DNA of 22,485 nucleotides, counting the filler, from an uncultured virus (IMG/VR IMGVR_UViG_2897328257_000004) (Duplodnaviria; Heunggongvirae; Uroviricota; Caudoviricetes). It is 3 parts of one record of this genome, joined end to end, with 100 filler letters (N's around TTAATTAATTAA, not from the genome) between each part and the next. Parts side by side here need not be neighbours in the genome. Positions count along the whole stretch, not along the records: positions 4,216 to 17,862 come from IMGVR_UViG_2897328257_000004; 2 more parts are not named here. One strand, written 5' to 3'. The position numbers and the translations under genes are program-made. This document shows, piece after piece, positions 1 to 21,925 of this stretch. Numbering within the stretch: position 1 is the first letter of the stretch; every line of letters starts with the position of its first letter. The notes beneath the pieces were generated by a model, which was not told the DNA's origin, ran no database searches, and saw only the letters and a program-made list of their open reading frames with translations.

Positions 1-1131
1 TCAAATGACCAGTTTTTTCCATTCCTTACCGCGTGCGTCGTTGTAAATATCGGTCATTTTTTGATTCGAATGGCCCAGCAAAATTTTGGTATCAATTCCC
101 TGTTCTCTGAACAATCGTTCTGATAAAGATCTCTGCTCATGGAAAGAGGGTGGGGTGCCATTAGCACGCCAGTTGTAATCCACTGAATCCCGGGCTTTTT
201 TAAATGCAACGGTTAACGTTGCTGGCTTAACCATCCCGCCGCGCTTAGCTGTCCCTTTAGCATGATGGTGGTGCAATAGCCACGGACTAAGAACGCAATC
301 GCGACAGGATGACACCACATCATCCAGGGTGAGATTTAATTTATCGCAACGCAGAGCCAGAGGGATGGCAATCCGGGTTCCTGTTTTTTGCTGTTCGACA
401 TGAAGATAACCATCCCTGATATCCGAAAATTTCATTTTGCAAATATCTGAAAGGCGCTGGCCTGTCATCAGTGCCAGCAGCATACCACGCTGTAAAAAGT
501 AACCATCCTTTTCCGCTGCATTATAAATCATCATCCACTCATCAAAGGTCAGTCGTTGCCGTGATATCCGTACCTGTGGTTTTTTTGCCGATTCTGCAGG
601 GTTAAAGCCTGGCGGGACATCGCCCGTTTGCTGGGCCTCCCGGAAAACATCAATCAGTACTTTCCTGAAAATTTGTCCCATTCTGTTATGTCCTTTTGCC
701 TTGTAATCTTCCAGCACCGATACCACATCTTTTACGGTTATGGCATCTAAAGGTCTGGTACCAAAACGTTCATCAAATACCCTGAGAGGGGATGCTTTCT
801 GTTTCAGTGTGTTGAGTTTGATCTCTCCGTTTTCATATCTTTCCTGTTGAATTTTTCGGTAACTATTCAGAAAAACAGAAACGGTTGATGAACCACCGGT
901 ATCACGAATAATTTTCTCCTGCAGAGTGAGCATTTGTTCCATTTGTTGCCTGGCAAGACGGCTGTTCGCTTCTGCTGCAATAGCTTCTGCCTGTTTCTGG
1001 TCAATACTGCCGAGCCCGTGATTTTTTCCTGTTATGGGATGCCTGTAACGCCAGTAAACTTTGTTATTTCTTTTGTCAAAATACGGAGATAATCCCGGAA
1101 CTTCAGTTTTATATTTTCGTGGGCGCGCCAT
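1..1131 (-). CDS. int: Lambda-family tyrosine integrase
   Basis: 376 aa. N-terminal arm-binding region (VYWRYRHPITGK). Catalytic motifs GQRLSD (R), QQKTG (K), FHEQR (HxxR), LLGH (H) and DIYND (Y). Overlaps the 3' end of xis. Confidence 0.97.
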   Translation of the reverse strand: MARPRKYKTEVPGLSPYFDKRNNKVYWRYRHPITGKNHGLGSIDQKQAEAIAAEANSRLARQQMEQMLTLQEKIIRDTGGSSTVSVFLNSYRKIQQERYENGEIKLNTLKQKASPLRVFDERFGTRPLDAITVKDVVSVLEDYKAKGHNRMGQIFRKVLIDVFREAQQTGDVPPGFNPAESAKKPQVRISRQRLTFDEWMMIYNAAEKDGYFLQRGMLLALMTGQRLSDICKMKFSDIRDGYLHVEQQKTGTRIAIPLALRCDKLNLTLDDVVSSCRDCVLSPWLLHHHHAKGTAKRGGMVKPATLTVAFKKARDSVDYNWRANGTPPSFHEQRSLSERLFREQGIDTKILLGHSNQKMTDIYNDARGKEWKKLVI

Positions 1132-1357
1132 CTTCCAGTATCCTCTTCAAAGCAGGGTGATCTGTGGCGATCACTTCCGGCTTGTTTACCATTCCGACAA
1201 AGCGAGCTCGAGGATCCACTCGCCAGTGTCTTCCAACTTTTTTGGGGAGAGGAAATATCATTCCGGCTTTAGCGTATTTACTTAACGTGCCCGGAGTAGG
1301 GACCGGTTCACTGAATTCCTCTTTTGCCCACTCAGTGAGCAGAATAAGTCTTGCCAT
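1109..1357 (-). CDS. xis: Excisionase
   Basis: 82-aa basic protein immediately upstream of and overlapping int. Xis-type pattern LTEWA...TLSKYAKAGMIFPLPKKVGRHWRV. Confidence 0.9.
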   Translation of the reverse strand: MARLILLTEWAKEEFSEPVPTPGTLSKYAKAGMIFPLPKKVGRHWRVDPRARFVGMVNKPEVIATDHPALKRILEDGAPTKI

Positions 1358-1421
1358 GAGCGTTGTTCGCTAATCATGGCCGCCGCCACTATAGCTTGCG
1401 GACGACGACCGGGGTTGAACA

Positions 1422-3893
1422 TTAAAAATCAGCCTGACTCGGGATCAGTTTTTGCCAGATTGCTGAAACTTGTTTTGCCTGGTGACGGGCATCGTCCAGC
1501 GCATTGTGGGGTACGCCTTCGAATGGAATAGCCATTCTGACATCAAAGCCAATGGCATTACCCAGTTCAACGATTGTGCGTACATCGCGATCGTTGTAGT
1601 AAAGCCACGGGCAGGGGATCCCCTGCCGTTCATATGAACGGCGTAAAATTACGTTGTCGAAGTTGGCTCCATTTCCCCATACCTGGACAAAACGCCCGCC
1701 GGAGTTTTTTTCGATAAATTCTATGAATAGCCGGAGAGCAACATCTAACGAGATTTCATCGGTAAAAATAGCGGATTGTGCTTCGCGTGATCGTTTCGCC
1801 CACCACTTTATTGTTTTACGGTCGATGATTCCGCCGGAGGTTTCCAGATCGATAGCTTTACTGAATTCAGGCCCCATCTCTCCGGTTGCCGGATCAAAAA
1901 ATTTACCGCCAATAGAGTTGATTGGCGCATCAGGATTTGTTCCCATCGTTTCAAGGTCGACCGACAGGTGAATCCACACTCTGCTGGTGGATGTGATAAT
2001 GTGATGACCATTCACCGCAATCAAGGGCTCTGCTGCCTCGCCAGTTTCACTATCGCTGGTGTGATGCTGATCGTTACCAGCATTCTCATTGTTCGGATGT
2101 TCAGCGCCTTCCATTTCCTCCGAATCATCTTCCTGAACTTCAGCCTGATTTTTTTCATCGAATGTTTCCTGGTATGTTGCGTCGCCCATTACCGCGCCAC
2201 AGTCAGGACAGTTGCCGTCGCCGGTCTGACCGCAAGCGGTGCAGACTTTTTCCGGTTCTTGTTGCACTTCTGGTTCAGGCAGTTTCGTTTCTGGCTCGTT
2301 TTGTAACGCATTTGGACTGTTTTGTTCCGCTTTCTGGTCGTTTTGTTCCGATTCGGGCTGGTTCTGGTTCACAGAATCGCGGGTTTCAATCCCCTTAACC
2401 CATTTCGGATCATTCGGGTCGCTAATCCCTTCAACAAATTCACCACGTGATGCAGCAAGCAATTTATCGGTGTCAGGCTGGCTGATATTGGCTGCCTGCA
2501 TAATTTTGTTTACTTCGTCAGCGGTAACTTTTACCGGCTCTGGTTGTTCTGAATCTTCTGCGGTATCTGTATTTTGCTGTAAGCCCGTATATGTGCCATT
2601 TTTTCGGGCAAAATATTCTTCTTTTGAGATTTCGGTACCACCGGCAGCCAGCGCCTTGTCCAGGCCAGAAAGTTTGTTTGCCCTGCCGTATTTTTCCCCG
2701 TCCTTATCGGTAAAGACGAAATAAAACGGTCCTTCACGCTCTACAGATGGTTCAGCTTCCACCAGGATTTCATTTTTTTGAGAATTGGATTCCGCCGTCT
2801 CCACTGGATCAGTTTGTGCTGCTGACGACAGGATAGCATCAGCAGAGCTCTGGTCTGTTTCTTCATGTTCAAACACGCCCTTTGTCGTCAGGTATTCGCT
2901 GATGTATTTGTTCAGTGCAACGGGATCTTTGTGAATGTCGATCGGGCGCTCACGAACAAGGCCGAAAATAGTCTGACGGTCATAGCGAAGCGCATCAGGC
3001 TGTTTGCGCATTGATGCTGAGATACGCTTCCAGTCTTCGCGATCCTTGTCGATAACCTCATTTTTAGCCCAGCGATGGATGGTACCGTCAATGTTTCCTG
3101 TATCCACATCCCCGGGCCAGAGGGCGCAGGCCAGTTCTTTATCCAGTGTTTTCCATGTCTGCCTGTATTCGCGACGAATGGCTGTAGTGACAGGGTTGAT
3201 TTTTGCTGCTGAGTTTTCGGTGAGGTGCTGGTTAACTCTGGTGCGTGCGAGATCAACAACAGACGTATATTTTCCGGTTTTCTTGCGTTCACCTTCGCGA
3301 CGTTTTTTCCAGATGCGCATCTCTGCCTGAATTTCTGGCCATTTGGCACCAGGCTTACATTTATGCTTAACCCACCCGATGGCATGCAGTTTAATCTCCG
3401 GATACATGGCGTTAACTTCTGGCATTTTCATCAACGCTTCAACGATATGTCCGTCGAAGGTTGCCATGTCTTCCTGCAACAATTCCTGTGCGCTAATCAC
3501 CATATCAACGGTGATGTTTTCACATGTGTCGAACTTAACCATGACAGCGTTCTGTACTTCAGGGGACAGCTTGTCAAAAGTGACGTTCATCGGATCTGAT
3601 TCAGTCTCAACCGGGACAAAGGAAGCAGACGCCTCATCCCAGCGGTTTTCCAGCATATATTCAGCATCCCAGGAGTCGAGGGCTGGGCGGGGTGTACCGG
3701 GTTTATCCTCACAGACAAGAAATTTATAAGCGCAGTCCTGAGCAGCCGGATAATGTTCAAGGAATTGCCAGTGAAATTTTGCGCGGGCGCGACGTTCATC
3801 ACCGGCTTCAATGGCTGTGGCCACAGCAACAGCGCCCTCGTTTTTTATTGCCTGTTCGTCAGGAATGGCGGCGCAAATAAATATTTTACTCAT
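1422..3893 (-). CDS. Prophage exonuclease: RecE(ExoVIII)-like N-terminal region fused to a C-terminal DEDDh 3'-5' exonuclease domain
   Basis: 823 aa. C-terminal motifs DLETMG, WGNGANFD and HNALDDA (DEDDh). CTAC-x7-CPDC motif and acidic linker. The N-terminal two thirds resemble the Rac RecE-type non-catalytic region (from recall). Confidence 0.85.
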   Translation of the reverse strand: MSKIFICAAIPDEQAIKNEGAVAVATAIEAGDERRARAKFHWQFLEHYPAAQDCAYKFLVCEDKPGTPRPALDSWDAEYMLENRWDEASASFVPVETESDPMNVTFDKLSPEVQNAVMVKFDTCENITVDMVISAQELLQEDMATFDGHIVEALMKMPEVNAMYPEIKLHAIGWVKHKCKPGAKWPEIQAEMRIWKKRREGERKKTGKYTSVVDLARTRVNQHLTENSAAKINPVTTAIRREYRQTWKTLDKELACALWPGDVDTGNIDGTIHRWAKNEVIDKDREDWKRISASMRKQPDALRYDRQTIFGLVRERPIDIHKDPVALNKYISEYLTTKGVFEHEETDQSSADAILSSAAQTDPVETAESNSQKNEILVEAEPSVEREGPFYFVFTDKDGEKYGRANKLSGLDKALAAGGTEISKEEYFARKNGTYTGLQQNTDTAEDSEQPEPVKVTADEVNKIMQAANISQPDTDKLLAASRGEFVEGISDPNDPKWVKGIETRDSVNQNQPESEQNDQKAEQNSPNALQNEPETKLPEPEVQQEPEKVCTACGQTGDGNCPDCGAVMGDATYQETFDEKNQAEVQEDDSEEMEGAEHPNNENAGNDQHHTSDSETGEAAEPLIAVNGHHIITSTSRVWIHLSVDLETMGTNPDAPINSIGGKFFDPATGEMGPEFSKAIDLETSGGIIDRKTIKWWAKRSREAQSAIFTDEISLDVALRLFIEFIEKNSGGRFVQVWGNGANFDNVILRRSYERQGIPCPWLYYNDRDVRTIVELGNAIGFDVRMAIPFEGVPHNALDDARHQAKQVSAIWQKLIPSQADF

Positions 3894-3988
3894 TGTGTTT
3901 AAACCTCATTACAGATTTCAGGGTGAACGAATCCCTGCCATTGCTGGCATTTTTAATCCGTTGGTATGGCGTTAATATGGCTGGCGGG

Positions 3989-4114
3989 TTATCCAGCCGG
4001 TATTTCGTTATTCAGGTACAGCGATACTTTGTTTAACGGGAGACATTCACCGGAAATTTTTTGCTCGTCTCTTGCCTGATGGCAGGATTCTTTACTGGCA
4101 TAAATTCCGGTAAT
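3989..4114 (-). CDS. YdfD/DUF1482-family small protein, 5' end lost in the gap
   Basis: Hand translation ITGIYASKESCHQARDEQKISGECLPLNKVSLYLNNEIPAG* matches the C..A..EQKI.G.C.P..KV....N.EIPAG pattern of YdfD-like proteins. Expected position upstream of the exonuclease. Not in the ORF track. Confidence 0.8.
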   Translation of the reverse strand: MTGIYASKESCHQARDEQKISGECLPLNKVSLYLNNEIPAG

Positions 4115-4115
4115 C

Positions 4116-4215
4116 NNNNNNNNNNNNNNNNNNNNNNNNNNNNNNNNNNNNNNNNNNNNTTAATTAATTAANNNNNNNNNNNNNNNNNNNNNNNNNNNNN
4201 NNNNNNNNNNNNNNN
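4116..4215. other. Artificial contig linker (44 N + TTAATTAATTAA + 44 N)
   Basis: Stops-in-all-frames 12-mer at 4160-4171 flanked by N runs. Identical design to the second gap. Confidence 0.99.
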
Positions 4216-4275
4216 CTGACGAACCTGTATTTCAAGATTAAAGAAGACCGTCGTAAGGCGGCACGGGGAGAGTAG
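4216..4275 (+). CDS. S: Class II holin (phage 21 S-like pinholin), C-terminal fragment
   Basis: Hand translation LTNLYFKIKEDRRKAARGE* is the characteristic C-terminus of S21-family holins. Lies upstream of a SAR endolysin. Confidence 0.92.
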   Translation: MTNLYFKIKEDRRKAARGE

Positions 4276-4947
4276 GTGATGAACCATGAAGAAATGAATC
4301 AGCGCTTCAGTCGTCTGGAAAATGAAATTGCTGAACTGAATAAAAAACTGTCGGCGCTGATGCCTTCTGAAGATGCAAACAAACGCCGCGATGAGCAGTT
4401 TGCGGCGTTTTACGATGATTGCATCAAAATTGCTCGCAGGATCTTTGCGAATATTTTGCAGGAAAAGTTTTTACCGACCGCATTGTCAGAAAAGTACTCC
4501 ATTACGGTTAAAAGTGCCGGAGAGGAAGGCAATAAACGTTATTTTATTGCGTCTGCACCGGATAAAGACCAGGAATGGGGGGGTAATCGGCCATCTTTTA
4601 TTGTGACAAGCGATGACTGGAATATCACGATCAGTGAAGATGGAAAAGTAACACCAGCATCGCACCAGCACAGTGAGGCGCTCATTGAATTTGCCATTGA
4701 TTACATGAAGAACAATAAAAAGCAGGGGCTGATGCAGCGCATTGGTCGCTGCATGGGATATCTGCAGCTGGCGGCAGAGATTGAAGCACTTGCCTGTGGT
4801 GCTGACAAGGATGTAGTTGTGCGGGAGGCTCTTCTTCGTGAGTTTGACAACCCGCCCTTTAAAAAAGTGCCGGCTTACTGGTTTCATCCCGGACTGACTT
4901 ATCTGAAAGGGCGGTTTGGGGAGAGGTTATCTGAACTTAAGCGATAG
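4276..4947 (+). CDS. Hypothetical protein between holin and endolysin, with N-terminal coiled coil
   Basis: 223-aa ORF starting immediately after the holin stop (GTG 4276 or ATG 4279, GGAG upstream). Heptad-like FSRLENEIAELNKKLSAL. No recognisable catalytic motif. Confidence 0.75.
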   Translation: MMNHEEMNQRFSRLENEIAELNKKLSALMPSEDANKRRDEQFAAFYDDCIKIARRIFANILQEKFLPTALSEKYSITVKSAGEEGNKRYFIASAPDKDQEWGGNRPSFIVTSDDWNITISEDGKVTPASHQHSEALIEFAIDYMKNNKKQGLMQRIGRCMGYLQLAAEIEALACGADKDVVVREALLREFDNPPFKKVPAYWFHPGLTYLKGRFGERLSELKR

Positions 4948-5247
4948 TTTATTGAAGAGCCGTTTTTTTTGCAGACAGGCAAAGTTTTTATCCCATGAAC
5001 AACCCGGGTGACTGAGTTCGTCATTAAACCATTTGTTAATGTTGTGCTTCAGATGCTGAAGCATCAATGGTGTTAATGTGGTGATAATGATATCCAGAGT
5101 TTCTGTTGAAAGCATGCCGTAAGGCTCTGAGAGAATGGCCTGAGTGGCCTCGCTGTTATCCGGGATAAGCGCTTTTAATTCTGATTTAACATTTTCGTTC
5201 ATTATCTGCAAAAACTCTTTGCGTAAATTGTTGTCATTATTATTCAT
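4927..5247 (-). CDS. Hypothetical protein, AT-rich, antisense to the late operon (moron-like)
   Basis: 106-aa ORF with an ATG start. Two perfect minus-strand TATAAT hexamers upstream (5295-5300, 5318-5323). 21-nt convergent overlap with 4276..4947. Confidence 0.65.
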   Translation of the reverse strand: MNNNDNNLRKEFLQIMNENVKSELKALIPDNSEATQAILSEPYGMLSTETLDIIITTLTPLMLQHLKHNINKWFNDELSHPGCSWDKNFACLQKKRLFNKLSLKFR

Positions 5248-5372
5248 TTATAAAATCTCATTTGTTGTTACCGGGTGTGTCCTGGTGCCTGTTGATTATA
5301 TTCATCGTGAGTACCGGATTATATATCTGACATATCCAGGAATAAGAGAGCTATAAATCCTGATAAATATCC

Positions 5373-5906
5373 ATGAACGCAAAAATCAAATACGGCCTGT
5401 CAGCTGCCGTTCTGGCGCTGATTGCCGCAGGGGCTTCTGCGCCTGAAATCCTCGACCAGTTTCTGGATGAAAAGGAAGGCAACCACACCACGGCATACCG
5501 TGATGGTGCGGGTATCTGGACCATCTGCCGAGGTGCCATCATGGTGGATGGTAAGCCTGTGATTCCTGGCATGAAGCTGTCGAAGGAAAAATGCGACCGG
5601 GTTAACGCCATTGAGCGTGATAAGGCGCTGGCATGGGTGGAGAAAAACATCAAAGTGCCACTGACTGAACCCCAGAAAGCGGGGATCGCGTCATTCTGCC
5701 CGTATAACATTGGCCCCGGTAAGTGTTTCCCGTCGACGTTTTATAAACGAATTAATGCAGGCGATCGCCGGGGTGCATGCGAGGCGATTCGCTGGTGGAT
5801 TAAAGACGGTGGCAGAGACTGCCGTATCCGCTCAAATAACTGTTATGGTCAGGTATCCCGTCGTGACCAGGAGAGCGCGCTGGCGTGCTGGGGTATCGAC
5901 AGATAA
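5373..5906 (+). CDS. R: SAR endolysin (GH24 lysozyme, R21-like)
   Basis: Gly/Ala-rich N-terminal SAR segment GLSAAVLALIAAGASA. Catalytic triad E35-D44-T50 with T4-lysozyme spacing. Confidence 0.96.
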   Translation: MNAKIKYGLSAAVLALIAAGASAPEILDQFLDEKEGNHTTAYRDGAGIWTICRGAIMVDGKPVIPGMKLSKEKCDRVNAIERDKALAWVEKNIKVPLTEPQKAGIASFCPYNIGPGKCFPSTFYKRINAGDRRGACEAIRWWIKDGGRDCRIRSNNCYGQVSRRDQESALACWGIDR

Positions 5907-6014
5907 GCCGAATATTTTGCTGAAAAATGACGTTGGCCAACGCGGACGGATAACACGAAATCCTGCGAACTGGCAAAATGTAAGTGAATAACGTCAGGAA
6001 CATTATTTCACGCA

Positions 6015-6040
6015 GAGGCACCGTAATGGTGCCTTTGTCA
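6015..6040 (+). terminator. Terminator-like hairpin after the endolysin gene
   Basis: GAGGCACC-GTAAT-GGTGCCTT stem-loop followed by an imperfect T tract (TGTCATTTC). Confidence 0.5.
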
Positions 6041-6045
6041 TTTCT

Positions 6046-6171
6046 GCGCTTCGCACAAGCGTAAATAAACCAAAGAACCTTTCAGGATGAGCCCTGGTGG
6101 ATAACCGGCAGTGGTCTGGTTAACCCTCTTTGGGCTGGTTATTCCTGTGCGCAGGGTTCATCACTAAAAGG
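6046..6171 (+). promoter_or_regulatory. Structured 5' leader, copy 1 (upstream of the antirepressor-N gene)
   Basis: Shares AGAACCTTTCAGGATGA (6074-6090) and GGTTCATCACTAAAAGG (6155-6171) exactly with 7441-7457 and 7519-7535. The two blocks are mutually complementary and include the SD. Confidence 0.75.
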
Positions 6172-6180
6172 AAATAACCG

Positions 6181-6753
6181 ATGAATATGATGACCGTGCC
6201 GTTTCACGGCGATTCTCTTTATGTGGTTAACCATAACGGCGAACCATACGTTCCCATGAAACCTGTCGTTGAGGGAATGGGTATGACCTGGCAGTCTCAA
6301 CACCGCAAATTGATGGAGAGATTTAAGACCTGCATCATCGAAATGATGATTCAGCTCCCCGGTGATACTCAGCGTCGTCTGGTTATCTGTCTTGCTTTAC
6401 GTAAACTTGCAGGTTGGCTGCAAACCATCAACCCAAATAAAGTTAAACCTGAAATCCGCGACAGAGTCATTCAGTATCAGGAAGAGTGCGACGATGTTCT
6501 CTATGAATACTGGACGAAGGGTTTTGTCGTTAATCCTCGTCAAATGAGCGTGATGGAAGAACTCAATCAGGCTTGCGCTGACATGCAACGGGATAAAAAC
6601 ATTGTCAGTGTGTTTGCTACCGGGCTGAATGAGTGGAAACAGGTTAAAGCTGCGCATGTATCAAAAATCCGCACATTGATAAACGAAGCGAATCTGCTGA
6701 TTGATTTTGTCCTGGCTGATACAGGCAAAGGGAAAATAACAAAGGCGGATTGA
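6181..6753 (+). CDS. Phage antirepressor protein (P22 Ant N-terminal domain)
   Basis: 190 aa. VPFHGDSLYVV..NGEPYVPMKPVVEGMG..W.SQ..KL, CLALRKLAGWLQTINPNKVKPEIR and YQEECDDVLYEYWTKG are P22_AR_N hallmarks. SD AAGGA. Confidence 0.92.
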   Translation: MNMMTVPFHGDSLYVVNHNGEPYVPMKPVVEGMGMTWQSQHRKLMERFKTCIIEMMIQLPGDTQRRLVICLALRKLAGWLQTINPNKVKPEIRDRVIQYQEECDDVLYEYWTKGFVVNPRQMSVMEELNQACADMQRDKNIVSVFATGLNEWKQVKAAHVSKIRTLINEANLLIDFVLADTGKGKITKAD

Positions 6754-6767
6754 TGGAGAGGTGGCTA

Positions 6768-6902
6768 ATGATATCGGATAAAATCATAACGCTGACAAAG
6801 ACCATTTGTGTGATTGTCGGCGTTTCATTTTCGCTAATGATGGTTGCTCTTTTTCTTTCCATAGCCTGGATGGCGTTGAGTTCGGCAGGGCTGGTGGGGT
6901 GA
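6768..6902 (+). CDS. Small putative membrane protein (44 aa)
   Basis: [51 protein letters not shown]. An in-frame ATG at 6753 overlaps the upstream stop, and its TGA overlaps the Rz GTG (GTGA). Not in the ORF track. Confidence 0.65.
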
Positions 6903-7342
6903 GCATAAACCGAATTATTTCCGCGTTTACCGTTATTCTGCTGGTGGTCTGTGGTGTGCTTAGTCTGGGGCTGAATCATTACCGTGATAACGCCATCGCC
7001 TACAAAGAGCAGCGCGATAAAGCCACATCCATCATCGATGATATGCAGAAGCGGCAACGTGATGTAGCAGAACTTGACGCCAGATACACAAAGGAGCTTG
7101 CTGATGCTAATGCGACTATCGAAAGTCTCCGTGCTGATGTTTCTGCTGGTCGTAAGCGCCTGCAAGTCGCCGCCACCTGTGCAAAGTCAACGACCGGAGC
7201 CAGCAGCATGGGCGATGGAGAAAGCCCAGGACTTACAGCAGATGCTGAACTCAATTATTACCGTCTCAGAAGTGGAATCGACAAGATAACCGCGCAGGTT
7301 AACTACCTGCAGGAATACATCAGGACGCAATGCCTGAAATAA
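6899..7342 (+). CDS. Rz: i-spanin Rz
   Basis: N-terminal TM segment followed by [25 protein letters not shown] and the [10 protein letters not shown] end. Start taken as GTG 6899 rather than 6806. Confidence 0.93.
7104..7289 (+). CDS. Rz1: o-spanin lipoprotein Rz1, nested in Rz (+1 frame)
   Basis: AAGGAG SD at 7091-7096. Signal peptide with lipobox VSAC and Pro-rich mature part (SPPP...PEPAAWAM). Confidence 0.9.
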
Positions 7343-7372
7343 TTTTTTTGCAAATCACAAAGTCCATTTAAT

Positions 7373-7398
7373 GAGCCCCGCGATGCGGGGCTTTTTTA
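7373..7398 (+). terminator. Rho-independent terminator after Rz
   Basis: AGCCCCGC-GAT-GCGGGGCT followed by TTTTT. Confidence 0.85.
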
Positions 7399-7412
7399 TG
7401 TACGCAGTAAAC

Positions 7413-7535
7413 GCGCTTCACACGCGCGACTTATGAACACAGAACCTTTCAGGATGACCCTTGAGGATGCCGGTTTGGTGATCGGTGCCTTTCTGTGGGC
7501 CGGAATCCTGTGTGACAAGGTTCATCACTAAAAGG
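7413..7535 (+). promoter_or_regulatory. Structured 5' leader, copy 2 (upstream of the Rha-family gene)
   Basis: Paralogue of 6046-6171 with two identical 17-mers, the same 28-nt offset to an upstream GCGCTTCRCAC box, and compensatory changes. Confidence 0.75.
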
Positions 7536-7544
7536 TGTGCACTG

Positions 7545-8087
7545 ATGAATTATCCAACTATCGTTAACGGCATCGATTTTCGAGATCTGATTTTTGTGGC
7601 AAACAACGATCCGGTTACAGATTCTTTTATGGTGGCAAAAGCATTTGGAAAGCTGCCGAAGAACGTAGTTCGTGACATTGAACGAACCATAGAAGCTTGC
7701 CCTCCTGAGTTTGATACAAAGCTCAACTTTGAGCTTTGCTATAAAAACAATGAGTTACAGAATGGTAAGCCGCAAAAATTCTACCGTCTCCGCAAGGATG
7801 GGTTGATGCTTTTGGTTATGTCCTACACCAAAAAAGAAGCAATGCGTATCAAAATTGCTTACATCAACGCATTTAACTGGATGTACGCCATGCTTCAGGT
7901 TGGTCATCGTCAATTTGAAGAAGAGAGAAATGCCGTAATGCTGGAGTACATGAAAGAGAAGGATGTTGCCAGCATGTCAGGTCGCCTGCTAAATCGCTGG
8001 GGCAAAATTAAGAAGCCACAGCTGCTGGCTAGAATTGAACGCCTTGAACAGCACGGGCAAACCGTAATCCCCGGACTCATCAATTAA
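7545..8087 (+). CDS. rha: Rha-family phage regulatory protein
   Basis: VTDSFMVAKAFGK..KNVVRDIE, NFELCY, YRLRKDGLMLLVMSYT and KIAYINAFN are Rha motifs. Start at ATG 7545 after AAGGTG (180 aa). Confidence 0.92.
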   Translation: MNYPTIVNGIDFRDLIFVANNDPVTDSFMVAKAFGKLPKNVVRDIERTIEACPPEFDTKLNFELCYKNNELQNGKPQKFYRLRKDGLMLLVMSYTKKEAMRIKIAYINAFNWMYAMLQVGHRQFEEERNAVMLEYMKEKDVASMSGRLLNRWGKIKKPQLLARIERLEQHGQTVIPGLIN

Positions 8088-8089
8088 CG

Positions 8090-8505
8090 GCAGTACCGCG
8101 AAACAACCCAAGCCAGTAAGTGGGGAAATAACACTGGCAGCCACTGAAAGATGAACCTCCAGCCTTATGGCAAAAAAGATTCTTTGTGGTGGCGGACTGA
8201 TGGAAAGACATCGGTTATTGCAGAGGCCATTCAATGAGTGGTCTCGACAATGGCTTATACCCTACACGGGATAACTTAATTGATATCCTTTTTAACGGAT
8301 AAAGGCATTTCAGCCTGACATAGCCATGCGCCGTATCGTCGCCGTATTCCTGCATTAACAGAGACCGCAGCCCGACAGGGAGACTCCTCTGCGAGAGTGT
8401 GCGGGGATAATCAAAAACGATACACACCGGGGTTTACCGCGTTAACGGAGCGCGGCGTTGTCCCCTCATGGTCGCTGGTCCGGTGCGATGGTGGAAGAAA
8501 CTGGA
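8090..8505 (+). ncRNA. Candidate structured non-coding RNA region between rha and cos
   Basis: No convincing ORF. Many nested helices with G-U pairs that work on the + strand (see findings). No family assignment. Confidence 0.4.
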
Positions 8506-8538
8506 TTTTGTTGCAACTGATAACCATTATCATTTTAC

Positions 8539-8580
8539 GGGTCCTTTCCGGCGATCCGGGCCGTTACGGGGCGGCGACCT
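8539..8580 (+). promoter_or_regulatory. cos: cosQ and cosN (lambda-type cohesive end site)
   Basis: cosQ GGGTCCT at 8539-8545. Lambda 12-nt cohesive end GGGCGGCGACCT at 8569-8580, followed by lambda-like CGCGGGTTTTCGCTATTTATGAAAATTTT. Confidence 0.97.
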
Positions 8581-8619
8581 CGCGGGTTTTCGCTATTTAT
8601 GAAAATTTTTAGGGAAAAA

Positions 8620-17963: not shown

Positions 17964-19562
17964 GGGGAAACCGGCAGTTACAGTATGGATGTTGAGCCGG
18001 GGTTGTACCGGGTGACGCTGAACACGGAAGGGTACGCGCCGTCATATGTGGGTGACATTCTGGTGAAGGCGGAGTCTGCACCGGGAACGCTGAATAAATT
18101 TCTGATGGACCTGGAGGACGCACAGTATTACCCGAAAGCCCTTGCAGAGCTGGAAGCGGTGGCCGCGGAAATCCTGAAACGTGCGGAAGCGTCAGCGGCG
18201 AGTGCAGAGGAAGCGAAGAAACGGGCAGAGAATGCGCGGGGACCGAAGGGGGATAAGGGGGACACCGGGCCGCAGGGTATTCCCGGGCCAAAAGGCGATA
18301 CCGGCGAGCGTGGGCCAAAGGGTGAGCGTGGTGAGACAGGACCACAGGGGCTTCAGGGTGTGAAAGGTGAACGGGGAGAGAAGGGCGAAAAAGGCGAGCC
18401 GGGAGGACCGGATGCGACGACGGCACAGAAGGGAATTGTGCAGTTAAGCAGCGCAACGGACAGTGATGATGAAACGAAGGCAGCCACCCCGAAAGCGGTG
18501 AAAGCGGCAATGGACAAAGCGGACGGATGCCTGGAGAAAGCGAAAAACGGTGACGATATCCCGGATAAGGTGAAGTTTCTGAACACCGTGGGAGCAGCCA
18601 GAGTATACGGGCGGGACATTCATACGGGGGCCGGTGAATGGACCACGAGTGAGTTTGTCGCCTGGCTGAAAGAAAAAGGGGCATTTGACCAGCCTTACTG
18701 GATGATGAAGGCATCACTGCCTGCGGGATTCAATAAAGTCATCACGGATGTCGGGCCGGGAAAACTCAATCTGGGTGGCTGCGCCATTGAGGTGATGGGA
18801 ACGTATGAGGCTGCCATAGTCCGGGTCACCATTGGCGAATACGGTGCAACGGGGTTTATTAATGGCACGGTCTGTACCTGTACGGTTTACGGCGACACAC
18901 GGTATTTCCACTGGCGGGTGGATTACAGCACAAAAAACAAACCGGATACGGTCAGCCAGCGGGATGCCAGCACGACGCAGAAAGGTGTGGTGCAGTTAAG
19001 CAGTGATACTGGCAGTAATGACGAAACAAAGGCAGCCACGCCGAAGGCCGTGAAGGCGGCAATGGATGTGGCAAATGAAGCGAAAACAAAGGCAGAAGAG
19101 GCTGCAGCAGGAGGTGGTGTTCCCGGTCCGAAAGGAGAGAAAGGCGACCCCGGAGCACAGGGTCCGAAAGGTGAAACGGGAGCAACAGGCCCCGCTGGTC
19201 CGCGGGGAGCGCAGGGACCGAAAGGGGAGAAAGGCGACCCCGGTCCCAGAGGTGAGCGTGGAGAAACCGGGCCGATGGGGCCGCCCGGGGCATCAGACGG
19301 GAAGAGCCGGGTTGTGGGTATCAGGCTGGGTAATAAACAGACTTATGCGCCGCAAACAGACAGCACTACATGGGCAGTGGATTTGGATATTGGTGCAATG
19401 ATTACGGGGATTGGCGGTTACAACGACGGAAACAAAACCCTTATTGACAGGGTATCTTACAGGCCGCTTCAGGTGACATTTGATGGTTCTCAGTGGCGTA
19501 CAGTCAGCGTGGGTGAGTATGTGTCGTCAGGAGCTTCGGGGTTTGAGTATTTTCCATTATAA
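17964..19562 (+). CDS. Side tail fibre with collagen-like domains, 5' end lost in the gap
   Basis: Frame is open from the gap. [13 protein letters not shown]...PGTLNKFL is the Stf-type N-terminal domain. Two Gly-X-Y blocks, two fibre repeats and a C-terminal YRPLQ..FDG.QW fibre motif. Confidence 0.93.
18240..18410 (+). repeat. Collagen-like Gly-X-Y block 1 (19 triplets)
   Basis: [12 protein letters not shown] ... GEP GGP. Confidence 0.95.
18411..19067 (+). repeat. Two diverged copies of the phage tail fibre repeat (18411-18515, 18963-19067)
   Basis: [35 protein letters not shown] and [35 protein letters not shown]. Confidence 0.92.
19116..19295 (+). repeat. Collagen-like Gly-X-Y block 2 (20 triplets)
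   Basis: [12 protein letters not shown] ... GPP GAS. Confidence 0.95.
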
Positions 19563-19603
19563 AGCGCATCATCTTTCAGACATGTAACCGGGAGGACTTA
19601 CAG

Positions 19604-20275
19604 ATGCACATAAAGAATTTCAGACAATACACGCCGGAAAATCCGGATGTGCCGGGTGCGATGTACCTGAAATCAGAGGATGGTCAGGACTGGTATGAGT
19701 GTCAGTCGTTATTTTCAGCAGAGACGCTGAAGGTGGTTTATAACAGTGCCGGAGTCATTACCGGCATCAGCAGGGTGGCGTCAGTTCTGTGGCCAGTGGG
19801 CCAGAGTGTGGTGGAGGTGGCGGATACGGAAGAAAACCGCAAAGCTGACATCTCGGGGCGCTGGGGTTTTGACGGGGAGAAAATCACGGACCTGCTGACC
19901 GCGGAGAAAGCGCGAGGGATGAAGGGCGATGAAATTAACGCCTGGCGTAATGCGATGGAAGCGGCGAACTACACGTTTGAGCACAATGGCCGGAAATGGG
20001 ACTACGGGAAGTCAACGCAGACGCGTCTTGAGCCGTCGGTGGCGGCAGCGAAATCGGGGAAACTGCCGGAGGCGTTTTTCTGGACGGATGCGGAAAACAA
20101 TGATGTGGAAGTGACAGCAGAAGAGCTTATAGCGCTGAGTGAAGCGGCAGAGCAGGCGATGTTCACCAAAGGGATGGAAATCCACGTCCGGCAGCGCACC
20201 ATGAAGAAAGAGCTGGAAAAGCTGACCAGTGCGGATGAGATACTGGCATACAGGGTTGGCTGGGGTGATCCGTAA
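19604..20275 (+). CDS. Tail fibre assembly protein (Tfa-like N-terminus, DUF4376-like C-terminus)
   Basis: MHIKNF...YLKSEDGQDWYE, LWP...SVVEV, WTDAENN. GGAGG SD; directly after the fibre gene. Confidence 0.85.
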   Translation: MHIKNFRQYTPENPDVPGAMYLKSEDGQDWYECQSLFSAETLKVVYNSAGVITGISRVASVLWPVGQSVVEVADTEENRKADISGRWGFDGEKITDLLTAEKARGMKGDEINAWRNAMEAANYTFEHNGRKWDYGKSTQTRLEPSVAAAKSGKLPEAFFWTDAENNDVEVTAEELIALSEAAEQAMFTKGMEIHVRQRTMKKELEKLTSADEILAYRVGWGDP

Positions 20276-20680
20276 TCTGGAAAGGAGGACACTGCGTATT
20301 TTTATGGAAGGAGAACGCCCAATAACCAATTATGCTCCTTCACGGTAATACACAGGAAAAGTTACTTAGGTAAATATTACACTTTAACTGAACAGTTACT
20401 TTTTACTGCTATTGAGATTTTTCTCATAAATTACAGTGTAAGCAGATGTGACACAGCATGCCGGATGAGAGTGAGTTTTTTCTGATGCCTGTTCCGGTGG
20501 TGTAGTCGTGGTTCTGAGTGACTACACCAAGAATAATGTAAGATAAATCCTAAATTATTAAATTAATTTTTGGATTTATTTTTGGAATATCCTGAATGAA
20601 GCCGTAATTAATCATATTTCTTTATGAGTATGAGGTGTTGAGGCTGATTTGTATACAGATAATTTAACAGGATATCCATA

Positions 20681-21925
20681 ATGAGTAAAAAAATCACAAA
20701 GACACTTCTGTCATCTTCTCTGGTTGTAGGTCTGTTGAGTGTTAGTTCTTTTACACGTGCAAATGAATATAGCTACAGCGCCTTGGATGTGTTAGGTAAA
20801 CACGGAAGTACTTACACCATTGTTTATAATAGTGATTCTGATACCGCTTATGTTAAATGGAAAAAAGTACCTAGCGGTGTTGAGGGGATTAAAGATGGAG
20901 ATATTGTACAAGGATTATCAAAAATTAATAAAGATGGGACTGTAGAAGTTACTACCAAGGATGGCACTAGTACATATCGTGTGTATGACCGGGAGTTTCA
21001 TAACCTAATGAATTCACTGGTCAAGCAGGATAAAGAAAACACTCTTGGAAAGAAAGAGGGTACTCAAACAGACCTTGTATCTGATGCTGATATTCGGAAT
21101 CTTTTTGGCAGAATTGCTGCGATCTCTGAAATGGAAACTAATGTTGGTCTGGATGAATATGGGCGAGTGGCAACTAGTGCAGAGAGTATTAAAGAACGCG
21201 TGTCTTTGCAGACTTATCTGGCTACAGAGGCTGCAAATAGCGCAATTGGCCTAGATAAAAACGGTAAGCTAACTCTGAATGAGACAGATATTGTAACGCC
21301 GTTACGTATCAATGACGGCGTTGTCACTATAGCGAAAGATGTGGAAGAACAGAAAGAAGGGCTGGCGATCCAGAAGAAAGGACTGTCTGAGCTTTCATCC
21401 CGCACAGATATCATTGATGCAGCAACGGCTGCGAATACGAATAAAATTGATTCCCGAACCACCGTTGGTGTGAATGCGGACGGAACCCTGACCAGCGCTG
21501 ATGGCGCTACAAAAACGATTGCTGTTAATGACGGTCTCGTTGCTCTGTCCGGCAGAACAGACCGTATTGATGCTGCAGTTGGTAGCGTTGACCGCCGGGT
21601 TACTAAAAATACACAGGCTATTCAGTCCAATACTCGCCAGTTGCAGGAACATAATGCACGCCTGAACAGCCAGCAGCGTCAAATTCGTGAGAATCACGAA
21701 GAGATGAAGCGTGCAGCAGCACAGAGTGCAGCGCTGGCGGGGCTTTTCCAGCCGTACAGTGTGGGGAAATTCAACGCCACTGCTGCCCTGGGGGGGTACA
21801 GTGATAAACAGGCTGTTGCCGTGGGTGTTGGTTACCGTTTCAATGAGCAGACAGCAGCGAAAGCAGGTGTGGCAGCGAGTGATGGCGATGTGTCCTACAA
21901 CGTAGGTGTGAACTTTGAGTTTTAA
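20681..21925 (+). CDS. eib: Trimeric autotransporter adhesin of the Eib/Saa family (YadA-type anchor)
   Basis: Signal peptide; coiled-coil stalk [45 protein letters not shown]; anchor [19 protein letters not shown]...YNVGVNFEF with terminal Phe. Confidence 0.92.

Follow-up and report, generated by a model that had tools for sequence, protein, structure and literature searches.

Two covarying pseudoknots in a duplicated prophage leader RNA and a candidate translational lock on antirepressor-type genes

Few viruses have been studied as thoroughly as the lambdoid, Stx-converting and P22-like phages. Ahead of antirepressor genes, the C4 RNA of P1 and P7 (immI, icd-ant) and the sar RNA of P22 recognise their sites through short loops, and in P1/P7 matched changes of loop and target lead to different specificities; these are separate or processed antisense RNAs that cover the ribosome-binding site (RBS) itself. 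The repZ-type leaders of plasmids use a translated leader peptide, repY, together with an antisense RNA that competes for a loop, and the alpha-operon leader of E. coli, to which S4 binds, is a 5' leader of compact fold with multiple pseudoknots, takes in the RBS and keeps the mRNA in a ribosome-inaccessible form. Here we consider an RNA leader of about 150 nucleotides (nt) that occurs twice in a 22,485-nt stretch (filler included; hereafter the window, always meaning this whole stretch) from an uncultured virus of the Caudoviricetes (IMG/VR IMGVR_UViG_2897328257_000004), once ahead of an antirepressor-like gene and once ahead of a gene for a Rha-family regulator. The leaders of IncI1 (ColIb-P9) repZ and IncB repA resemble it in that pairing links a 5' hairpin's loop to a remote site upstream of an RBS that is itself held in a hairpin, translation is what is controlled, and a pseudoknot is needed for RepZ to be translated (PMC8053102). 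The isrK-orf45-anrP leader of the Salmonella prophage Gifsy-1 is likewise an RNA that precedes an antirepressor-like gene; it is transcribed and translationally silent, with a long-range pairing between its 5' part and downstream sequence holding the inactive fold (PMC4825925).

Comparison of homologous sequences shows that the present leader keeps two long-range helices, together with all of its nested helices, by compensatory changes across many prophages. On balance, we favour the view that it is a cis-acting, doubly pseudoknotted translational lock on the downstream antirepressor-type gene, where the direction of its effect on translation is what we infer. From 5' to 3', the leader consists of a G+C-rich hairpin with a loop of 5–8 nt (H0), an A+U-rich spacer that is unpaired in the folds of both copies, a 7-nt strand that we call 'a', and a long, interrupted hairpin with the Shine-Dalgarno sequence in its basal helix, 6–12 nt ahead of the start codon. 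One long-range helix, PK1, joins the H0 loop to a bulge of 6–7 nt on the 3' strand of the long hairpin, and the other, PK2, joins strand 'a' to the apical loop (Table 1). An initial annotation of this DNA had noticed a box in each copy (GCGCTTCGCAC, beginning at 6046, and GCGCTTCACAC, beginning at 7413) with a complementary partner in a 3'-side bulge of the main hairpin, and had proposed a pseudoknot or alternative fold that would make translation depend on the presence of the box. The coordinates, letters and complementarities that it gave are all right, and the distance of 28 nt from the box to the first conserved block is indeed identical in the two copies, because box and block each repeat at a spacing of 1367 (repeat families D6 and D3). 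Since the pairing between box and bulge crosses the main hairpin, it is a pseudoknot, formed by a hairpin loop with a bulge and strongly covarying. What had been overlooked is that the box, as predicted by folding, is the loop of a small local hairpin. In copy 1, four of the six bases of its partner are unpaired in the minimum-energy fold.

The comparative evidence for PK1 comes from an alignment (A2) of 39 model-based matches, including the two copies of the window, to a covariance model (R1) that was built from 75 leaders with nested helices only and contains no PK1 information; a MAFFT alignment (A1) with its RNAalifold consensus misaligns the bulges of the copy-1 type and was left out of the pseudoknot counts. 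In these 39 leaders all six pairs of PK1 have changed on both sides, so that the covariation of the two copies noted initially extends to further homologues. Of 219 cells, 93.2% are paired, against 70.4% when the letters of the 3' strand are shuffled (none of 500 shuffles reached the observed value) and 16–51% when the partner is slid by 1–3 columns; the shuffle control is uncorrected for relatedness, the slid control corrects for it, and counts across relatives are to be read as non-independent events. The central pair is GC in 21 leaders, UA in 9, AU in 4, CG in 1 and GU in 1, and is unpaired in 2. A separate, anchor-based count, in which the alignment of the loop is not trusted, one flanking nt per side is allowed and G-U is taken as a pair, finds PK1 with at least 5 base pairs (bp) in 73 of 77 distinct combinations. 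Among close relatives, loop and bulge change together through three forms, UCUCAC/GUGAGA, UCACAC/GUGUGA and UCGCAC/GUGCGA, and more distant phage records have other matched versions, such as CCGCA/UGCGG in phage 2851 and UUCUCG/CGAGAA in mEpX2, where the sequence of the main hairpin is quite different. With CCUCG/CGAGG, CGCUC/GAGCG, UGCCC/GGGCA, UCGUAC/GUACGA, UUCACC/GGUGAA, CCGAAA/UUUCGG and GUGCAU/AUGCGC also found, about a dozen sequence versions were counted by eye. By reading of the sequences, four of the five leaders from an order-level sample (L160, L161, L162 and L164, three of them from two other families) keep both PK1 and PK2, with L162 retaining PK1 through a U-G wobble. From the A2 alignment as we read it, a 5' hairpin can be made out ahead of the main hairpin in 37 of the 39 matches, the exceptions being L146, where the 5' part is absent, and L133:189-354, where the stem is degenerate.

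Taken one sequence at a time, PK1 would not stand out. The hairpin was detected in 111 of 113 unique leaders, and the best complement that a loop has within its own leader does not exceed what chance allows when set against shuffled loops (p 0.01–0.95, mostly 0.03–0.4). It is the comparison of homologues that makes PK1 real, and this comparison indicates that the boxes take part in a genuine, evolutionarily maintained long-range RNA contact. One might take the same lack of significance, along with counts of G-U and A-C cells that do not prove a plus-strand RNA, to mean that no RNA pairing is involved, the complementarity being fortuitous or representing inverted DNA half-sites for a protein. 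We regard this as extremely unlikely: complementarity persists at a single, fixed structural position through about a dozen unrelated versions, a protein binding there would have to change in step with its site while the neighbouring genes come from at least six families, and in L150:1501-1663 and L162 a few pairs survive only as G-U.

PK2 had gone unseen in the initial annotation. From the comparison, it appears as a second covarying long-range helix, formed by 5–8 nt on the 5' side of the hairpin base with the apical loop. On A2, where the apical region is loosely aligned, 76.0% of 287 cells are paired against 63.4% after shuffling (0 of 500 reaching the observed value), and three of its pairs occur as three to five pair types each. 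The anchor-based count finds at least 5 bp in 71 of the 77 combinations, with 34 matched versions of PK2 as compared to 30 of PK1. A dozen or more matched versions were noticed in homologues, among them CUCAG/CUGAG, CCAAG/CUUGG, CGAG/CUCG, CAUAG/CUAUG, CACCG/CGGUG, CGCAG/CUGCG, GUCG/CGAC and CCACAA/UUGUGG. When a nascent RNA ending before the 3' arm is folded, both copies have the PK2 helix in their minimum-energy structure, and PK2 probably forms first during transcription, ahead of the 3' arm. The nested helices are kept in the same manner: all five pairs of the H0 stem (helix 1) have changed on both sides in homologues, helices 3–8 of the main hairpin are 93.7–100% paired on A2 and all but one of their 22 pairs have changed on both sides, and over all 33 pairs, PK1 included, 94.3% of the cells are paired versus 77.4% after shuffling. 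The Shine-Dalgarno sequence of the downstream gene thus lies within a helix that is kept by compensatory changes, as is expected of a sequestering leader. Of the conserved unpaired nucleotides at junctions from which a riboswitch pocket could be built, the RNA body shows G150 and G153 alone at a conservation of 90% or more (38 sequences, with the apical region poorly aligned).

The spacer between H0 and strand 'a' carries an additional feature in leaders of the VT2-Sakai type (L129 2524-2681, L004 352-509), in which the loop sequence AUCUCAC recurs there (GCGC-AUCUCAC-GCGC-AUCUCAC). Judged by its letters, the spacer copy could stand in for the loop as the partner of the bulge. Some other leader classes have weaker copies of their loop sequence in the spacer.

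How does this leader compare with the systems mentioned at the outset? Translation of repZ needs the repY peptide, whereas the internal AUG of the present leader opens no conserved frame; repZ-type leaders have an antisense RNA that competes for the loop, whereas a sigma-70 consensus scan found no minus-strand promoter-like site here; and the target here is a bulge on a closed hairpin, with a second pseudoknot in addition. Unlike C4 and sar with their targets, both partners are in one leader, the target bulge is about 15 nt upstream of the Shine-Dalgarno sequence, and no match to the Rfam C4 model is found at E up to 10. Operators of ribosomal-protein genes have a known repressor protein, whereas no binding protein is indicated here and conserved unpaired nt are few. 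The RNase III-sensitive hairpin of the lambda N leader is alike in that a long hairpin in a phage mRNA leader occludes the RBS of the next gene; that leader is not known to have pseudoknots. The Gifsy-1 leader differs by a helix of about 30 nt, a small-RNA terminator with read-through, an upstream open reading frame (ORF) of 45 codons and activation in trans by a short isoform (PMC4825925). Against this, the present leader has helices of 5–8 bp, no conserved upstream ORF, no terminator after H0 and no Rfam IsrK match. Over the whole window, Rfam 15 gives no match at the gathering score, models for C4 (RF01695), IsrK (RF01394) and the pistol, twister and hatchet ribozymes included, and by this measure the leader therefore belongs neither to C4 or IsrK nor to any known class of ribozyme or riboswitch. 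With the threshold relaxed to E 10, positions 5900–7650 give five sub-threshold matches only (asX2 twice, rimP, F6 and CRISPR-DR33), and the stronger asX2, rimP and F6 alignments centre on the terminator hairpin at 7373–7397. We found no description of the leader in the literature, including by its conserved 13–15-mers used as words, and the part available of a 2026 preprint on the mining of non-coding elements does not mention it. Nor did we find a description of a hairpin-loop-to-bulge kiss combined with a flank-to-apical-loop helix; in kind, going by its sequence, the element would be a cis-acting translational operator.

Table 1. Features of the two leader copies and their surroundings in the window
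Feature	Position	Strand	Remarks
Leader, copy 1	6026..6187	+	full-length match to covariance model R1 (cmsearch), 116.4 bits, E 5.8e-28, model positions 1-156
Leader, copy 2	7395..7551	+	full-length match to model R1, 165.6 bits, E 9.6e-41
Terminator-like hairpin upstream of leader copy 1	6013..6037	+	GGCACC...GGTGCC, then T-rich tail; inverted repeat I17, arms 6013-6022/6028-6037
Intrinsic terminator after Rz, upstream of leader copy 2	7373..7398	+	9-pair stem 7373-7393, then TTTTAT (terminator scan)
H0 (5' hairpin), copy 1	6045..6063	+	stem 6045-6051/6057-6063, loop CGCAC 6052-6056; UGCGCUU-CGCAC-AAGCGUA (minimum-energy fold)
H0, copy 2	7412..7428	+	CGCGC 7412-7416/GCGCG 7424-7428, loop UUCACAC 7417-7423 (minimum-energy fold)
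PK1 5' strand, copy 1	6052..6057	+	CGCACA, H0 loop
PK1 3' strand, copy 1	6146..6151	+	UGUGCG, bulge on 3' strand of main hairpin; isolated duplex -7.6 kcal/mol
PK1 5' strand, copy 2	7418..7423	+	UCACAC
PK1 3' strand, copy 2	7510..7515	+	GUGUGA, six-base bulge, all unpaired in fold
PK2 5' strand ('a'), copy 1	6070..6076	+	CCAAAGA, abuts hairpin base on 5' side
PK2 3' strand, copy 1	6127..6133	+	UCUUUGG, apical loop, ahead of conserved GGGC; inside inverted repeat I1
PK2 5' strand ('a'), copy 2	7438..7444	+	CACAGAA
PK2 3' strand, copy 2	7487..7493	+	UUCUGUG, apical loop
Main hairpin, copy 1	6078..6171	+	basal helix CCUUU 6078-6082/AAAGG 6167-6171 (Shine-Dalgarno); fold -50.3 kcal/mol, z -3.2
Main hairpin, copy 2	7445..7535	+	basal helix CCUUU 7445-7449/AAAGG 7531-7535 (Shine-Dalgarno); fold -45.7 kcal/mol
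Gene behind copy 1	6181..6753	+	antirepressor-like, P22_AR_N (Pfam PF10547, E 7.4e-46); between lysozyme gene and Rz
Gene behind copy 2	7545..8087	+	Rha-family regulator; Phage_pRha (PF09669, E 1.7e-21), ORF11CD3 (PF10549, E 4.7e-26); between Rz and terminase genes

Other uses of the hairpin sequence were also considered. A coding frame inside it was rejected: in copy 2, an AUG in CAGGAUGA opens 25 codons up to the Shine-Dalgarno sequence, and neither the frame nor its stop is conserved, the stop falling anywhere from -63 to +407 across the 81 unique leaders listed (at a TAA in the Shine-Dalgarno sequence in 32, 7 nt later in 13). As the AUG within it opens no conserved frame, the conservation of CAGGAUGA is structural. 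The same segment resembles the consensus for CsrA obtained by systematic evolution of ligands by exponential enrichment (SELEX), and a CsrA site was likewise rejected, its GGA being lost in divergent homologues (CAGAAAG, CGGGAUA). A look by eye at the box and spacer found no consistent consensus for LexA or IHF.

The leader is widespread, occurring in a large number of prophages of enterobacteria. With blastn, 306 phage records were found for copy 1 and 366 for copy 2, including Stx-converting, Shigella, Salmonella P22-like and Klebsiella phages, and a pattern scan of viral contigs gave at least 125 stretches, corresponding to at least 79 unique leaders by the 60-nt upstream flank or at least 81 by the window used for frame analysis. 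In genome samples drawn around the nearest genome available, model R1 (E up to 0.001) matched 36 of 151 genomes across the genera of that genome's family. Of the 151 genomes sampled from the order, five were matched, two of eight in this family, one of four in a second family and two of six in a third, and none among the genomes searched in the remaining families. The genes behind 38 leaders (a count that leaves out one 11-codon remnant) encode Rha in 13 cases, KilA-N in 11, P22_AR_N in 3, Bro-N in 3, ANT in 1 and TerB in 4, with 3 lacking a Pfam family; since TerB-domain proteins follow in 4 of the 38 loci, the leader is not tied to a single protein family. The TerB loci are L145, L152, L157 and L159, each with a TerB-domain protein of about 141 amino acids (aa) behind the leader. 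In the window, copy 1 precedes a P22_AR_N gene lying between the lysozyme gene and Rz, and copy 2 a Rha gene flanked by Rz and the terminase genes; the element thus heads accessory cassettes that sit within the late operon, laid out as terminator, leader and gene. In most homologues, a G+C-rich hairpin with a U-run is seen by eye upstream of the leader; in the window, the T-run of the hairpin at 6013–6037 is interrupted, so it was not called by the terminator scan. Leader-gene cassettes are often found in tandem, and do so 0.3–1.4 kilobases (kb) apart in the window, L132, L133 and L150, with the paired leaders differing in both PK1 and PK2; these four arrangements are too few for a test against chance.

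Our consideration of how the leader might act goes as follows. Because a straight hairpin of 26 bp cannot bring its apical loop to the strand that enters its base, we propose a fold-back of the hairpin at the bulge, giving a compact, doubly pseudoknotted body. PK1 and H0 would then make a three-way junction at the bulge, and the upper stem with PK2 (about 5+4+3+7 layers) would lie beside the roughly 19 layers of the lower stem. Strand 'a' would run straight into the basal helix, anchoring the 5' strand of the Shine-Dalgarno helix, and this anchoring should suppress fraying and ribosome entry, with the basal helix clamped shut. The downstream gene would then be poorly translated, or not at all, on any transcript that carries the leader. 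Together, the upstream terminator and the leader would amount to a double lock against expression in the lysogen, which makes sense because the downstream proteins are of antirepressor type. One leader that we count as decay in support of such a lock is L132:1501-1650, whose loop, after several transitions, no longer fits the bulge and behind which only an 11-codon gene remnant is found.

A number of observations weigh against the lock and need to be set beside it. PK2 is incompatible with a straight 26-bp hairpin, and the fold-back geometry comes from reasoning; the pseudoknots may make the sequestration either stronger or weaker. There are natural exceptions: in L039 (351-509), H0 and 'a' are those of the copy-1 type and the hairpin body is of another type, with one mismatch in each long-range helix, so that from its sequence it appears to be a natural recombinant, in effect a swap mutant; the bulge is deleted in L119; L146, without the 5' part, has an intact Rha gene; PK2 has a mismatch in L112 and L066, and PK1 has one in L163. 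Cells with G-U as against A-C number 37/27 in the nested helices, 5/2 in PK1 and 9/12 in PK2, such that wobble does not settle the strand, and the strand of the RNA was taken from gene orientation and the Shine-Dalgarno sequence. In two RNA-library runs a contig of 6–9 kb from a relative crosses the stretch at flat depth, which shows neither transcription nor RNA ends, and two raw-read runs gave 0 and 1 read on it. The central pair of PK1 is the most variable position of the structured core in close relatives (1.55 and 1.61 bits), which would also be expected under selection for specificity of recognition in trans. Lastly, in L127, L144 and L150 the basal helix is 6 nt longer while the upper stem and the length of PK2 are unchanged, and such unequal arms seem to fit steric competition between PK2 and the Shine-Dalgarno helix somewhat better than a lock.

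Such competition leads to the opposite assignment, in which the hairpin alone is the off state and PK2, with or without PK1, strains or competes with the basal helix and turns translation on, either within a co-transcriptional time window or through a factor. Besides the longer basal helices just described, it would be in keeping with the alignment, where strand 'a' abuts the basal helix without a linker, with the early appearance of PK2 in folds of the nascent RNA, and with the consideration that PK2 and the full stem could not both be accommodated in a standard H-type geometry. A pseudoknot required for RepZ translation provides a precedent (PMC8053102). The energies speak the other way, however, the basal and middle helices being much stronger than a helix of 7 bp, with about -45 to -50 kcal/mol for the whole fold and about -7 for PK2. 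In addition, PK2 and the Shine-Dalgarno helix share no nucleotides, and there is no conserved leader peptide to open the hairpin, unlike the situation with repY. We therefore consider an activator or two-state switch of this kind possible, though rather unlikely.

The lock, as we favour it, would act on every transcript with the leader. The initial annotation instead had translation differ between read-through transcripts and processed or internally initiated RNAs, and while its structural half stands as a covarying pseudoknot, this functional half finds no support. In the folds, the main hairpin pairs the Shine-Dalgarno sequence by itself, box present or absent, and no sigma-70-like site, judged by the sigma-70 consensus only, is found in 5850–7650 on either strand, where 2.6 are expected from shuffles; an internal promoter for the leader was rejected on this ground. 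What survives of the idea is 5' processing, whereby the box would matter on read-through transcripts and RNAs started or cut between box and hairpin would be translated differently. Both PK1 and PK2 use the 5' flank (H0 and 'a'), such that loss of about 45 nt would abolish them together, and the intervening spacer is A+U-rich and unpaired in the folds. With the Shine-Dalgarno sequence still sequestered in the flankless hairpin, no promoter-like site in this interval and RNA runs that yielded contigs only, without RNA ends, we hold this to be very improbable.

The variability of the central PK1 pair noted above raises yet another thought, that H0, carried by one RNA or by a processed fragment, makes a kissing contact with the bulge in a different leader, with the loop serving as a specificity code between co-resident prophages or tandem leaders. 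The tandem leaders do differ in PK1 and PK2, and a short IsrK RNA activates the mRNA of an antirepressor-like gene in trans (PMC4825925). For the present leader, though, no Rfam match to C4 or IsrK was obtained, and the means for making a trans-acting RNA are hard to see: besides the lack of a promoter-like site, no intrinsic terminator follows H0, the spacer being A-rich without a U-run and the scan placing terminators upstream of H0, and no free-standing copy of the box or H0, nor an extra leader, was found in the window. The variation of PK2 is equally great without an obvious role in trans. Strict orthogonality of co-resident leaders was rejected, as a loop is shared by L071/L112 on one contig and by L012/L109 in one genome. 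Recognition in trans as the principal function thus strikes us as barely plausible. A broader conception would make the leader a conformational switch of a new class, a doubly pseudoknotted sensor or kinetic timer that licenses translation of the antirepressor and other accessory genes conditionally, with the hypervariable loop-bulge helix doubling as a specificity code in trans; candidates for the condition are rapid late transcription under Q modification, a small molecule, and a factor of the phage or the host. We view this as quite unlikely. If true, the loop-bulge code would let leaders of co-resident prophages communicate or stay insulated in trans.

Should the translational lock be the correct reading, the region ahead of ant, rha and kilA-type accessory genes, which is mostly unannotated or hypothetical in the phage records examined, would be a structured RNA of wide occurrence, its two pseudoknots backed by covariation, and it would explain how antirepressor-type genes that could upset lysogeny are silent within the late operon. 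The leader is a candidate new family for RNA databases. Its naturally matched versions are ready-made compensatory mutants, and it offers a compact object for probing, structure determination and reporter genetics.

Some features of the rest of the window may be noted. Three ORFs lack a Pfam match, 4276–4947 (+, 223 aa), 8215–8427 (-, 70 aa) and 8397–8612 (+, 71 aa), the latter two inside the 660-nt interval between the Rha and terminase genes. To judge from positions 1–5400 and 17985–21925, the prophage gives the impression of having been rearranged or reduced. An integrase of the lambda type (1–1131, -) and an 823-aa protein with an Rv2179c-like exoribonuclease domain (1422–3893, -) are within about 1.5 kb of the lysis genes, and a tail-fibre gene (17985–19562) lies about 2 kb past the capsid gene, with a gene for a YadA-like-anchor protein at 20681–21925.

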